Positions 34,901 to 43,482 are shown, counted from the stretch's first letter. The stretch: DNA of 64,000 bases from Bacteroidota bacterium (GCA_018267545.1 JAFDYG010000465.1:15556-79555); one strand, 5' to 3'. The notes: a model not told the origin generated them from the letters alone. Translations and numbers: made by a program.

Positions 34901-37245
34901 CCGAACGCATAACGGGCCCCATCGGCCTCTCGCCCCTCGTCATCGGCTGCGGCTACGGCGGTCTCAGCATCGACAGTAGCATCCACGCCATCCTCCAGGG
35001 GATCACCAACGCCAATGCACGCATCTCGAACCTGTATGGCGAGAAGGCCAGGCTCGTAGAAGAGATAGAATTCGTCGAGCTATACCAGGACCGCGTCCTC
35101 GGCTGCTACTACGCCATCAAGAAGATCGCCAGCGAGATGAGCGGCGCGCTCAATATCATCCCCGCGCAAGACGGCATCCGGGAACGCAACGGTTCCCGCC
35201 AGAAGGTCAATATCGACCAGGGCCGCGACTGGTGGAACCGCATCACCATCGCCAAAAATGACGACGAGAAGGCCCAGGGGATGCGATTCTCCATTTCGAC
35301 CGGAGCAGCGCGGGAGGAGATGCAAAACCTATATACCGCGGGAGGCGTCGTCGACAGGCTCCTGGCCAATATCTCTACCGATAACGGCTGGAGTACGGAC
35401 AAGGCCGCAGCGCTCTTCGAACTGCTGATGCCCAACGCCTTCAAGGCCCGAATGAAGAGACACGGCAATATCACCTGGGTACTCGACGACTATACGGCCG
35501 GCTACCCCTGGGAGCTGCTGCAGCAAAGAGGCGAAGACGTCAAGCCACTTTGTATCAACGCCGGTATGATCCGGCAGCTATCCACCGCCAACGCACGGAC
35601 CAATATCGAAACGGTAACCGCCAACACGGCTCTCGTAGTCGGTGACCCGGTGACGGATGGCTTCCTGCCACAGCTGGACGGCGCGCTGGATGAGGCAAAG
35701 GGCGTAGCCCAGTTCCTCGACGCGCATGGCTACAAGGTCACACAGCTGCTGCGGGAAACCGAAGACAATATCATCCCCGCCCTTTTCGGCAACGACTATA
35801 AAATCCTTCACCTCGCAGGGCATGGCGTCGTAGGAAGCACCATCTGGGAAACGGGTATGGTCGTAGGCAACGACAGCTTCCTGAGCTCGGCCCGGATCGC
35901 GCAGATAGGCGCCTCCTCCGACCTGGCATTCGTCAACTGCTGCTACCTCGGAAAGGTGGACGAGGTCGCGGAAAAGTATTACCAGGACCGCTATAAGTTA
36001 GCCGCCAACATCGGCACCCAGCTGATCAACAACGGCGTAAAGGCGGTGATCGTAGCAGGCTGGAAGGTGGACGACGCAGAAGCCAAGAGATTCGCAGACG
36101 TCTTCTATCAAAATATGTTCATAGGCCGCCCCTTTGGCGAAGCGGTCCGTCTGGCTCGCGAAGCTACCTACAACAGCAATCCCAAGATCAATACCTGGGG
36201 GGCTTATCAGTGTTATGGCAATCCCTGGTACCGGCTAAAGGCCGAGGGACGCTACCAGGACGTAAAGCAATACGTCATCTCCGAACAAGCCGAGATCGAC
36301 CTCCTCAACCTCGACAGCGACATGCGCACCGGAGACCATCCTGCCGAAGAGCTGCTCACCCGGCTGAAGACTATCTCCGACGAGACCGACCGTGCCAACC
36401 TGCGCACACCCACCGTCACCGAGTGGGAAGCGATGATTTATAAAAGCCTGGGCAAATACGACCTGTCGCTGCAAAAGTATCAGCAGCTCATCCACGGCAT
36501 GCAAGGGGGCTACTCCTTCAAGGCGGTGGAGCTCTACTGTAACCTCCGCGCGAAGCTGCTCAAGGAACGGATCGACAAGAAAGAAGCCGCGGCCCAGCTC
36601 GAGAAGGAATTCGACCAGCTGCACTCCGAGCTGGAGGCGCTGATCCTCCTGAGCCCTACGGCCGACCGTTACGATATCATGGGAAGCTGCTGGAAACGGC
36701 GGACGGCCCTCTACCTCGACAAAGATTCCAAGGCGAAGCTGATCGACGCGGTTCAAAAATCCGCGCAGTATTACAGTGCCGCGGACAAGATCGCTGACAA
36801 GGTCTACCCCTTCTGCAATTGGATCGCGCTGCAAAACCTGCTCATCGCCGCCAGCATCCAGCAGTGGGGTGAAACGGCGGATATCCCTACCCTGGACGAT
36901 ATCCACCAGCGGCTCGCTCGCCTCGAGCAAGTGTGTGCGCCTGGCCCGGGAACCAAGCTGTTCCAGGACTGGATCGCTCCGGCCAATCTCAAGCTGACGA
37001 ACTGGTTTGTCGTCAACACGCACAACGGAGCCGATACAGCTGACACACTAATGGATGGAGTTGTAGATATCTATCATGACACCTGGGGGCGGGTTGGTGC
37101 CACAGAGGACCGGATGTCGGATATCCAACACCTGCAGCTGCTGATCGATGCGCTGGCGGGACTGACCGCGGGTCAGTCTGCGGAACATTTTATGATTGGT
37201 CGGATGAAGGCGCTGTTGGAGCGGTTGAAGCAATACAGTGTTTAA
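31918..37245 (+). CDS. 1775-aa multidomain protein: two alpha/beta-hydrolase lipase domains, a PepA-N/macro-like module, a CHAT (caspase-like) protease and a helical C-terminus
   Basis: Lipase 1 is LLFIHGTNSS...VITHSRGG (Ser codon 32632..32634). Lipase 2, LCAT/PGAP1-like, is VLIPGIMGS...YDWR...IVAHSLGG (Ser codon 33742..33744). The CHAT dyad is ILHLAGHG (His codon 35821..35823) and FVNCCYLG (Cys codons 35938..35943), followed by VIVAGWKVDD. The C-terminal ~330 aa are helical and TPR-like. Confidence 0.85.
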   Translation: MPISKLTLNGQVQAPVTTEDPNHPDLILEKTILVAPPTRGEDNQVQIQMGEDNLVELIYEDNTTWLCTADALEELYPGQLKQQRGADEGIQLPLTLDAPPSERGLVQQIALKVAQLFTKKAAAVGMAELAKTLEEKHLGTMRGVFRVSSTFELSPFVATDSDSKSGPSLLFIHGTNSSSTGSFAELVGSDLWSYATNTYNKNNILAFQHETLTKSPLQNAAELIAQLPAGADLHVITHSRGGLVGEVLARFSGAAGVGFSEMEIAYLKKENRDDDVKYIRQLQDAYKQKQFKVSRFIRVACPTAGTTILSKRLDHFFNIGLNLIGATTGIAVNPIYIATKNLLVAAIDQKNDPKVLPGLEAMNPDSPFITVLNSQKIDDTEIDDTTPILVISGNCKAKVNFKALLILTERLFFAEKNDLVVNTQSMYEGSKRHSKLRFFFDEGTDVDHFSYFKNKKTNSAIKLALESPDQVMTNGFTEFSRGGSAARGALAGPGDYFKNAAMGKRPIVVLIPGIMGSCLTQNFVPIWVRYVQILQGDLFRLDLTKEDVKATAIVKASYERLGETLSADYDVVTFPYDWRLSPKDAAGQLETELKRLMDLNQPIKIVAHSLGGVVVRDLMVFYAETWKRLNATDNFRLLFLGSPLMGSFRIVNVLFGEDDIIKKLSKLDLLHTKRELLAMFARFPGILGLLPLTSDPNTDNFGIEGTWAQLANATDNKDWPIPKANAGLDQFNQYQQAVVKAMPGLDLKNAVYVAGRDKETPLGYRIDTRKDNQKELVFLSTAEGDASVTWDSGIPKSLIEKNAVYYVNHSHGDLANSPDMFSGIKEILERGKTTLFTNIRPLVRGDQRVFRKPQTADFDLSEDGVNKTLMGLSDEKPIESSQLPVRVSIAHGDLKYASYPVLAGHFKGDSILYAEKRIDQILNGQLEERNRLGIYPGDFGTCEIIFTPVEDEFQGAVIVGIGEQDGLTPFDLAKTIEQAASKYLVLVNAKNKSATERITGPIGLSPLVIGCGYGGLSIDSSIHAILQGITNANARISNLYGEKARLVEEIEFVELYQDRVLGCYYAIKKIASEMSGALNIIPAQDGIRERNGSRQKVNIDQGRDWWNRITIAKNDDEKAQGMRFSISTGAAREEMQNLYTAGGVVDRLLANISTDNGWSTDKAAALFELLMPNAFKARMKRHGNITWVLDDYTAGYPWELLQQRGEDVKPLCINAGMIRQLSTANARTNIETVTANTALVVGDPVTDGFLPQLDGALDEAKGVAQFLDAHGYKVTQLLRETEDNIIPALFGNDYKILHLAGHGVVGSTIWETGMVVGNDSFLSSARIAQIGASSDLAFVNCCYLGKVDEVAEKYYQDRYKLAANIGTQLINNGVKAVIVAGWKVDDAEAKRFADVFYQNMFIGRPFGEAVRLAREATYNSNPKINTWGAYQCYGNPWYRLKAEGRYQDVKQYVISEQAEIDLLNLDSDMRTGDHPAEELLTRLKTISDETDRANLRTPTVTEWEAMIYKSLGKYDLSLQKYQQLIHGMQGGYSFKAVELYCNLRAKLLKERIDKKEAAAQLEKEFDQLHSELEALILLSPTADRYDIMGSCWKRRTALYLDKDSKAKLIDAVQKSAQYYSAADKIADKVYPFCNWIALQNLLIAASIQQWGETADIPTLDDIHQRLARLEQVCAPGPGTKLFQDWIAPANLKLTNWFVVNTHNGADTADTLMDGVVDIYHDTWGRVGATEDRMSDIQHLQLLIDALAGLTAGQSAEHFMIGRMKALLERLKQYSV

Positions 37246-43482: not shown

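Follow-up and report, generated by a model that had tools for sequence, protein, structure and literature searches.

A four-gene operon couples a HerA–NurA module to a long-form Septu pair in Bacteroidota

Introduction

The window analysed here is a stretch of 64,000 nucleotides (nt) from a Bacteroidota bacterium (GCA_018267545.1, JAFDYG010000465.1:15556-79555). Its minus strand carries, at 37242-43482, a block of four open reading frames (ORFs) for a HerA-like ATPase, a NurA-like nuclease and the Septu proteins PtuA and PtuB. The ORF list of the window places them at the coordinates given by an earlier note, made from the sequence alone, which described a coupled operon fusing a HerA–NurA module to a Septu-like module. 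We find that the operon is a composite of a TdpAB-like restriction core and Septu, lineage-specific and well conserved, whose parts are all of familiar kinds. The adjacency of the two halves is not accidental, as indicated by their co-occurrence in searches from either side and by an invariant 4-nt seam between them. We somewhat favour the view that the operon encodes one integrated anti-phage defence system rather than two neighbouring systems. Within this view, cooperation between the halves, their order of action and the sparing of self DNA are what we infer, the order of action with considerably less certainty.

Four genes in a tightly coupled operon

The tight junctions described in the earlier note were confirmed by direct reading of the sequence (gene coordinates in Table 1). 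The herA and nurA genes are separated by a spacer of 1 nt (...AAA TAG T ATG A...), nurA and ptuA share an ATGA in a 4-nt overlap at 40200-40203 (...AAATGATC...), and ptuA and ptuB overlap by 14 nt (38104-38117). The motifs quoted in that note, GMTRTGKS, FEEAH, AVDGEN and KDGPL, are each found in the expected protein. Within the four-gene block, promoter-like and terminator-like matches showed no excess over the shuffled expectation. The 3' end of ptuB meets, stop to stop, the convergent gene of a CHAT-domain protein of 1775 amino acids (aa); the two share a TTTAAA, and no intergenic space is left for a terminator. The intergenic region 5' of herA is free of ORFs and of sigma-70-like and TANNTTTG matches. 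We presume that this region holds the operon's promoter; relatives carry a methyltransferase gene at the same place. A search of the E. coli genome with the operon region gave no match.

The two halves are linked in both search directions

A forward scan, in which the NurA-like family was the query and each species was represented by a single genome, returned 24 loci. PtuA directly follows NurA in all 17 genome loci of the Bacteroidota clade, and PtuB comes next in 16 of the 16 whose contig continues. The 17 loci come from five or more classes (Chitinophagia, Flavobacteriia, Sphingobacteriia, Cytophagia and Bacteroidia) and include Puia, Kaistella, Chryseobacterium, Pedobacter, Aequorivita, Flagellimonas, Crocinitomicaceae, Cytophagaceae, Paludibacteraceae and Bacteroides thetaiotaomicron, with NurA identity falling as low as 43%. 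A reverse scan of metagenomes, with a PtuA alignment as the query, yielded 34 loci of this PtuA subfamily; NurA and HerA stand immediately upstream of PtuA in every one of the 25 with sufficient upstream sequence. The earlier note had proposed to look for the four genes as a block in other genomes, and had reasoned that homologous loci holding one half only would mean accidental adjacency. Within Bacteroidota, the halves were always found together, in both directions.

About 40 other Bacteroidota loci share the gene order. The 4-nt overlap of the nurA stop with the ptuA start is the same in all 38 distinct loci compared and in the window; the other junctions differ from locus to locus (-26 to +21, 0 to +15, and -4/-8/-14). 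The two-way co-occurrence and this invariant seam are the grounds on which we exclude accidental adjacency. Pairwise divergence is strongly correlated within each half (HerA–NurA, r=0.84; PtuA–PtuB, r=0.92), and across the halves r ranges from 0.43 to 0.65 (Mantel r=0.58, reached in 0/2000 permutations). We read the cross-half correlation as suggesting that the halves have long been linked, with some exchange of modules or with rates that differ. At two loci from gut Bacteroidales (L015 and L016), HerA–NurA is further from the window (44-52% identity) than PtuAB (49-55%), a hint of module exchange between the halves.

The linkage appears to be a property of one lineage. HerA–NurA occurs without PtuAB outside Bacteroidota, and plasmids of Bacillus and Rhizobium carry long-form PtuAB by itself, as a pair of genes (PtuA identity ~25-33%). 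Judged by these distributions, the four-gene operon is most simply seen as a lineage-specific capture, not as a four-part machine that is obligate everywhere.

In many Bacteroidota relatives the operon extends past ptuB with a third HNH gene (~215-350 aa), whose start overlaps the ptuB stop, followed by a ~577-aa gene with no Pfam match, so that the full unit may comprise seven genes. This extended form is seen in L022 (14420-16805) and in L004, L010, L012, L015, L029, L031, L047, L050 and L053. Neither the third HNH gene nor the ~577-aa gene is present in the window or its clade.

A divergent HerA-like ATPase and a NurA-fold nuclease

The HerA-like protein carries a Walker A motif (GMTRTGKS) at residues 224-231 and a Walker B motif (FEEAH) at 530-534. 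It matches Pfam DUF87, the HerA central domain, at 2.4e-14 (54.4 bits, above the cutoff of 23.2) and the PADLOC HerA models at 1.2e-23 at best. Its top match in a sequence search of the PDB is TdpA (8wet_A, 2.6e-22, residues 462-641), and the next are the HerAs of SIR2-HerA, DUF4297-HerA and Sulfolobus. These matches bear out the proposed HerA/FtsK-type ATPase. Every NCBIfam HerA equivalog scored far under its cutoff (e.g., 63.6 vs 800), and for this reason the protein is better classified as a divergent member of the superfamily than as an ortholog of repair HerA.

The NurA-like protein contains AVDGEN at 66-71, KDGPL at 276-280 and a Cys4 zinc-ribbon insert (C188, C191, C211 and C216). Family alignments show residues D68, D277, E313, H321 and D413 to be invariant or almost invariant. 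The Pfam NurA model scored the window protein below threshold (16.4 bits vs a cutoff of 21) and matched 8 of 13 diverse family members, at 4e-5 at best. No PADLOC or NCBIfam model matched the protein, neither it nor its family profile matched any PDB sequence even at E=10, and similarity to TdpB was undetectable by sequence or profile search. A first AlphaFold2 model, from an 18-sequence alignment, was too weak, with a predicted local distance difference test score (pLDDT) of 61, and already pointed to TdpB. The model used here was built from a 50-sequence alignment spanning 38-80% identity and reached a pLDDT of 82.8 and a predicted template modelling score of 0.84.

Foldseek comparison of this model with the PDB gave 13 matches at E<=0.001, and all 13 are NurA or TdpB. 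The top match is chain G of the TdpAB structure (8wfd_G, 1.8e-8, template modelling score 0.58), which we infer to be TdpB from the entry title and the chain length; others are NurA of Deinococcus, Thermococcus, Sulfolobus and Pyrococcus, and TM1739. The earlier note had named a NurA-like nuclease with a zinc ribbon, an idea that it would have dropped had the protein modelled as something else; NurA and TdpB are the sole significant fold matches. The 450-aa protein is thus predicted to adopt the RNase-H-like NurA fold with a conserved acidic/His site and to act as a nuclease. Its relatives on plasmids are labelled 'DNA double-strand break repair nuclease NurA' by the Prokaryotic Genome Annotation Pipeline (PGAP). 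The NurA-like proteins of L015 and L016 have an additional ~27-residue Cys-rich insertion just N-terminal of the zinc ribbon (alignment columns ~206-232).

A long-form Septu pair with two predicted active nucleases in the operon

PtuA matches PADLOC PDLC00292 at 1.7e-204 over residues 3-693 (model positions 4-720 of 726) and scores above the cutoffs of Pfam AAA_15, AAA_21 and AAA_23. Its ATPase motifs comprise Walker A (K326), the signature LSDGFKS, Walker B (D517/E518) and H549 of the H-loop, all invariant across loci. PtuB matches PADLOC PDLC00319 at 5.2e-75, TIGR02646 with 66.1 bits (cutoff 52.15), the NCBIfam PtuB model at 1e-22 and Pfam HNH with 24.7 (cutoff 21.4). It is laid out as CAYC...DIEH(81)FRP...CPFC with a helical C-terminal domain. 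By profile and by adjacency, genes 3 and 4 are identified as a standard long-form Septu pair. The earlier descriptions of the two genes, as an ABC ATPase with an N-terminal HNH-like domain and a TIGR02646-like HNH protein that together resemble Septu, are upheld by these matches.

The same note had counted up to three nuclease domains, which we correct to two. The N-terminal part of PtuA (~26-230) is a PtuB-like domain with CxxC...CxxC, and the PADLOC PtuB models match residues 26-230. It reads I-D-R-FRP (R79) vs D-I-E-H-FRP in PtuB, so that the catalytic His is replaced. This replacement is found in 17 of 17 aligned loci (by Arg, and by Asn in one), and the catalytic E-H dyad of PtuB is kept in 16 of 16. 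Since the PtuA N-domain has no catalytic His, the operon most likely encodes two active nucleases rather than three. The N-domains of the standalone long PtuAs on Bacillus and Rhizobium plasmids are equally His-less, which argues that the domain is an old zinc-binding pseudo-nuclease and not an adaptation to this operon; the idea that it evolved as an adaptor for HerA–NurA was rejected on the same ground.

PtuA scored 113.6 bits against the NCBIfam retron-type PtuA equivalog (cutoff 500), indicating that it is not of the retron subtype. It also has weak Rad50, RecF and RecN matches, the Rad50 models giving ~25-30 bits vs cutoffs of 700-1000. PtuA is known as an ABC ATPase related to Rad50 and OLD, and standalone PtuAB nicks DNA, is inhibited by ATP and is tightly controlled before infection (PMC12819146). 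Retrons co-opt PtuAB as an effector, which the complex of reverse transcriptase and msDNA sequesters until infection; retron-associated PtuAB is toxic once released, and its PtuA has gained specific partner-binding elements (PMC12819146).

A methyltransferase core with a swappable nuclease position

In distant loci without PtuAB, a gene for a ~330-aa N6/N4 DNA methyltransferase (PF01555; PADLOC MTase_II PDLC03323, up to 6.5e-109) overlaps the herA start. The same methyltransferase lies directly 5' of herA in almost every Bacteroidota locus with PtuAB, and ~30 related loci in all carry it directly 5' of herA-nurA. Deferribacter has it 5' of herA as well, and so do three other contexts that were sampled, among them Dehalococcoides mccartyi. 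Because the methyltransferase adjoins herA in PtuAB-less and PtuAB-bearing loci alike, the constant core of the family is methyltransferase–HerA–NurA, in a layout like that of restriction–modification. This family comprises 619 clusters (50% identity) at E<=1e-3 and 397 at E<=1e-10, with more than 2,000 proteins around one Dehalococcoidia member alone.

The gene that follows nurA, on the same strand and at tight spacing, differs by lineage, and in each case it encodes an extra nuclease. A PD-(D/E)xK protein lies 3 nt after nurA and a SACS/NOV_C protein 19 nt after it; an exonuclease-domain protein takes the position in a third locus (Table 1), and PtuAB occupies it in Bacteroidota. The post-nurA position thus looks like a swappable accessory-nuclease slot of the family.

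The window itself has no such methyltransferase. A tblastn search with five methylases (E<=1e-3) found no match in the window, 43483..43796 included, or in L001 (Puia dinghuensis), L002 (Puia sp.) and L026. Pfam scans likewise found no DNA methyltransferase of any family in the sizeable ORFs of the window or in the flanks of L001, L002 and L026; for the window's genome this result covers 64 kb. In a neighbour-joining tree of HerA and NurA, these four methylase-less loci group as a single clade that sits within a set of methylase-bearing ones, and all PtuAB-bearing loci form one clade apart from the PtuAB-less outgroup. This nesting points to a single capture of PtuAB, followed by a single loss of the methylase. 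The usual unit, and the ancestral one, begins with the N6/N4 methyltransferase, which the window's clade of Puia-like Chitinophagaceae has lost.

Each of the four genes is intact in the methylase-less clade, with dN/dS of ~0.07-0.12 where estimable and pN/pS of 0.14-0.35, at synonymous sites near saturation. From the dN/dS and the intact ORFs we conclude that the four-gene form is kept by purifying selection and is not decaying. A methylase-less form, with a helix-turn-helix gene before HerA and NurA, also exists on a Tolypothrix plasmid, which implies that the methylase is not indispensable in general.

Decayed loci were seen elsewhere in the family. The nurA gene of L022 (10001-11351) and the herA gene of L024 (7981-9974) are frameshifted, L014/L036 carries inverted methylase fragments 5' of herA (1-450), and on a Deferribacter plasmid (L066, 3126-6924) herA is split by insertion of an IS200/IS605 TnpB-TnpA element. 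In the flanks of the methylase-less loci, a MacB/FtsX-type permease gene lies 5' and an M20 peptidase gene 3' of the cassette (L001, 5407-7791 and 17111-18505; L026, 9-1949 and 13634-14734). The M20 peptidase gene of the window (26243-27628) is ~10 kb further from the cassette, with the NACHT and CHAT genes between. The arrangement suggests a syntenic chromosomal hotspot in which more defence genes have accumulated in the window's genome.

Relation to known systems

The closest characterised relative of the HerA–NurA half, judged by sequence for HerA and by the modelled fold for NurA, appears to be TdpAB rather than Sir2-HerA or DUF4297-HerA. TdpA is reportedly a HerA-like ATPase and TdpB a nuclease (PDB 8wet/8wfd; An et al. 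2025, cited in PMC12914056). Like TdpABC, the operon pairs a HerA-like ATPase with a NurA-fold nuclease, a pair tied to a DNA-modification gene in relatives. Unlike in TdpABC, the modification gene of the relatives encodes a PF01555 N6/N4 base methyltransferase and not the TdpC phosphorothioation enzyme, the window has no modification gene, and Tdp is without PtuAB. The self-mark of TdpABC is phosphorothioate (PMC12914056).

The earlier note had set HerA beside the Sir2-HerA and DUF4297-HerA systems. That kinship stands in so far as PADLOC models and PDB chains of SIR2-HerA (Nezha) and DUF4297-HerA match the C-terminal ATPase region, as expected of HerA-family hexameric ATPases, and gives way to TdpAB as the nearest characterised relative. 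The partner here is a NurA-fold nuclease, and neither SIR2 nor DUF4297 is found in the operon or its neighbours.

For the other half, genes 3 and 4 are full-length matches to PtuA1 and PtuB1 of PADLOC, with the gene order and overlapping stop/start of Septu type I. Unlike that system, this PtuA subfamily was never alone in the loci examined and is coupled to the 3' end of herA-nurA, with or without the methyltransferase gene. Capture of PtuAB in one operon by another sensing or targeting module has a precedent in the retrons Ec78/Eco7, or Septu type II (PMC8565338, PMC12819146). In those retrons the partner is a reverse transcriptase with a non-coding RNA, and here it is HerA–NurA, with or without the methyltransferase, with PtuAB downstream of the partner genes; the partner-specific additions of retron PtuA are absent from the window PtuA. 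The methylase-containing module Hma, made up of the helicase HmaA, the methyltransferase HmaB and the ATPase HmaC, often adjoins Septu type I (PMC8565338), and the present relatives resemble it as a methyltransferase-containing NTPase module recurrently beside Septu. They differ from it in that its methylase makes 5-methylcytosine vs N6/N4 methylation here, and Hma is often away from Septu. Identity of the upstream module with Hma was rejected, as none of the four proteins matches the PADLOC Hma model and the methylase of the relatives is of the N6/N4 type.

A further likeness is to the archaeal mre11-rad50-herA-nurA operon, which likewise combines a HerA ATPase, a NurA nuclease, an ABC ATPase and a second nuclease. 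In archaea, HerA–NurA is encoded with mre11-rad50, and the complex translocates and cleaves both strands of double-stranded DNA processively (PMC12977600). PDB matches were obtained to archaeal HerA–NurA and to the end-resection complex of Deinococcus (7f6d, 9x1n, 2ygk and 3tai). The genes ptuA and ptuB, however, are distinct from rad50 and mre11, the second nuclease has an HNH vs a phosphoesterase fold, and the Rad50 and HerA equivalogs are under cutoff. Because Mre11 and Rad50 are missing and the context is a methylase-linked defence island, the resemblance is better explained by convergent assembly than by operon homology, and the operon would be a convergent echo of the archaeal one. With no TdpC-type gene, no Mre11-Rad50 and scores under the equivalog cutoffs, the HerA–NurA half falls outside both Tdp and archaeal HerA–NurA.

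PADLOC v2 would report 'Septu' plus an orphan HerA match, and has no model for the NurA-like nuclease. Current annotation tools would call Septu only and overlook half the system. In the full-text literature, where subscription papers are thinly covered so that a negative is not proof, we found no description of the operon or of a methylase–HerA–NurA triad as a defence system. The earlier note could not name the combination either, and we found no published name for it in the literature searched.

Proposed mechanism and competing explanations

In the integrated system that we favour, PtuAB would be a controlled initiator that binds invading DNA and nicks or cuts it once its inhibition lifts during infection. 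A HerA hexamer and a NurA dimer would then load at the PtuAB lesion, or at a free end, and degrade the DNA processively with ATP. Where the methylase is present, self DNA would additionally be marked; in the window's clade, the chromosome would be spared by PtuAB gating and by the requirement for an entry site. Such a division of labour would parallel that of archaeal Mre11-Rad50 with HerA–NurA. As to its origin, the post-nurA slot was taken, at the root of a single Bacteroidota clade, by an entire long-form Septu pair, which has been translationally coupled to nurA from then on. The unrelated nucleases in the same slot suggest that the HerA–NurA motor benefits from an accessory endonuclease, and loss of the methylase within the PtuAB-bearing lineage is compatible with PtuAB-type gating having taken over self-protection.

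Several points weigh against this reading. Co-transcription and co-inheritance would be equally expected if two autonomous modules were selected together, and scans for sigma-70 and Bacteroidetes-type (TANNTTTG) promoters gave nothing above chance, with none 5' of herA. Paenibacillus, Dehalococcoidia, Vibrio, Deferribacter and others have methyltransferase–HerA–NurA with no PtuAB. Standalone Septu already shows the long PtuA architecture, pseudo-HNH N-domain included, and no domain for docking to HerA–NurA has visibly been gained. Co-divergence across the halves (r 0.43-0.65) is clearly weaker than within them, which suggests module exchange or independent rates. A methylase-less HerA–NurA leaves the sparing of self DNA to be accounted for, and an unlinked methylase may lie beyond the 64-kb window. 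Finally, the target of certain Septu and retron PtuAB systems is tRNA-Tyr and not DNA (PMC12819146), which would fit abortive infection better than an initiator role.

A stronger form of the integrated system is a single supramolecular machine of PtuAB and HerA–NurA, an independently assembled bacterial immune counterpart of the archaeal Mre11-Rad50/HerA–NurA resection apparatus, in which PtuAB gating let the lineage drop methylation. We put this forward only tentatively, as a minority prospect. If true, the lineage would have shifted from the logic of restriction–modification, which marks self, to that of an innate sensor, which acts only on infection.

We hold it possible, though less likely than integration, that the operon places two autonomous defence systems on one transcript, as a co-regulated two-layer cassette directed at different phages or at different stages. 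Each half is indeed found alone elsewhere, as methyltransferase–HerA–NurA and as plasmid PtuAB. The fused form has no adaptor domain particular to it, the weaker cross-half co-divergence is as such a cassette would have it, and defence systems commonly cluster, Septu having already been noted beside Hma. Mere chance or island adjacency, on the other hand, would not predict a 4-nt overlap kept unchanged across 38 loci amid drift at the other junctions, nor a 100% association in both search directions. Nor would it predict several unrelated nucleases in the post-nurA slot, which suggest that the slot serves HerA–NurA.

Another possibility, which we consider unlikely, is a guard or abortive-infection arrangement in which a toxic PtuAB is restrained by HerA–NurA, or monitors it, and is set free once the restriction module is inhibited or overloaded by a phage. 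Retrons Ec78/Eco7 co-opt PtuAB in this way, and it is toxic once released (PMC12819146). The tRNA-Tyr targeting open to Septu and retron PtuAB would fit such a role, the close coupling of ptuA translation to that of nurA would assist in setting the stoichiometry of a sequestering complex, and the arrangement would give a reason for keeping PtuAB attached to a restriction module. The retron PtuA, however, gained new partner-binding elements, whereas the window PtuA has the standalone long-PtuA architecture, and the other occupants of the post-nurA slot look like DNA nucleases and not like classical abortive-infection toxins.

A housekeeping repair operon, with PtuA in place of Rad50 and PtuB in place of Mre11, is very improbable. 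Its gene classes would parallel those of the archaeal operon (PMC12977600), and the weak Rad50, RecF and RecN matches of PtuA and the PGAP repair-nuclease label on relatives would agree with it. The distribution is nevertheless patchy and cross-phylum, with plasmid copies and loci decayed by insertion sequences or frameshifts; the methyltransferase link is nearly constant, the surroundings are those of a defence island, and the Septu models score 1.7e-204 and 5.2e-75 vs ~30 bits for Rad50 (cutoffs 700-1000). A non-functional window copy, left over from a five-gene system, as its missing methylase and the decay in L022, L024, L014 and L066 might suggest, has next to no probability and is rejected by dN/dS of ~0.07-0.12 at near-saturated synonymous sites, given also four full-length ORFs with intact catalytic motifs and a methylase-less form common to a four-locus clade.

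The operon would be a second independent capture of PtuAB by another immune system, after type I-A retrons, and would support the notion of PtuAB as a portable effector or initiator cassette. The methylase–HerA–NurA family would itself be a widespread and apparently uncharacterised restriction family, with ~400-600 clusters at 50% identity in many phyla. Its swappable nuclease slot offers a comparative series on what HerA–NurA needs to start DNA degradation, and the methylase-less clade is a natural experiment on how a restriction-type nuclease is kept safe without a linked modification enzyme.

Genomic neighbourhood

The operon lies within a chromosomal island at ~15-56 kb of the window, flanked by housekeeping genes (for Ffh, a sigma-70 factor, LptF/G and a glycoside hydrolase). 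Relatives have genes for Type III restriction–modification, GmrSD, UvrD-PD-(D/E)xK and TIR proteins as neighbours and are partly on plasmids. The island of conflict genes, the defence neighbours of the relatives, the plasmid copies and the copies disrupted by insertion sequences or frameshifts make the surroundings fit defence rather than repair.

Table 1. Features of the window and, in the last three rows, post-nurA nuclease genes of related loci
Feature	Position	Strand	Size	Description
herA-like gene	41554..43482	-	642 aa	divergent HerA, FtsK/HerA-superfamily ATPase
nurA-like gene	40200..41552	-	450 aa	divergent NurA-family nuclease with zinc-ribbon insert
ptuA	38104..40203	-	699 aa	long-form Septu PtuA
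ptuB	37242..38117	-	291 aa	Septu PtuB HNH endonuclease
Upstream intergenic region	43483..43796	.	314 bp	between herA and a divergently transcribed aminotransferase gene
1775-aa protein	31918-37245	+	1775 aa	DUF7379, LCAT-like lipase region, CHAT protease, TPR-S sensor; no PADLOC match
DUF4062-NACHT-HEAT STAND NTPase	28826-31840	-	1004 aa	weak PADLOC PDC-S60 match
DUF4062 protein	24326-25660	-	444 aa	heads co-directional run
AAA ATPase	23356-24321			in DUF4062-headed run
1533-aa ORF	18758-23359		1533 aa	in DUF4062-headed run; no Pfam match
Patatin-like protein	15962-18745		927 aa	in DUF4062-headed run
Two tandem HD-CE proteins	49824-52865, 52874-56017	-	~1010-1050 aa each	HD-CE 1e-44 to 1e-47
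PLD-family gene pair	45209-48417	-	587 aa; 474 aa	587-aa protein DrmC-like, 3.9e-14; 474-aa ORF 20 nt downstream, no Pfam/PADLOC match
Post-nurA nuclease	L069 8362-9114		250 aa	PD-(D/E)xK protein
Post-nurA nuclease	L067 8366-11620		1084 aa	SACS/NOV_C protein
Post-nurA nuclease	L065 8900-11350		816 aa	exonuclease-domain protein

Among the neighbouring genes (Table 1), the run of DUF4062, AAA ATPase, 1533-aa and patatin-like proteins may be another multi-gene conflict system, and the PLD-family gene with the 474-aa ORF behind it may form a separate two-gene defence candidate. The tandem HD-CE proteins are probably paralogous phosphohydrolases of a defence type; each is weakly similar to the C-terminal portion of the PADLOC DRT model RT_UG24.

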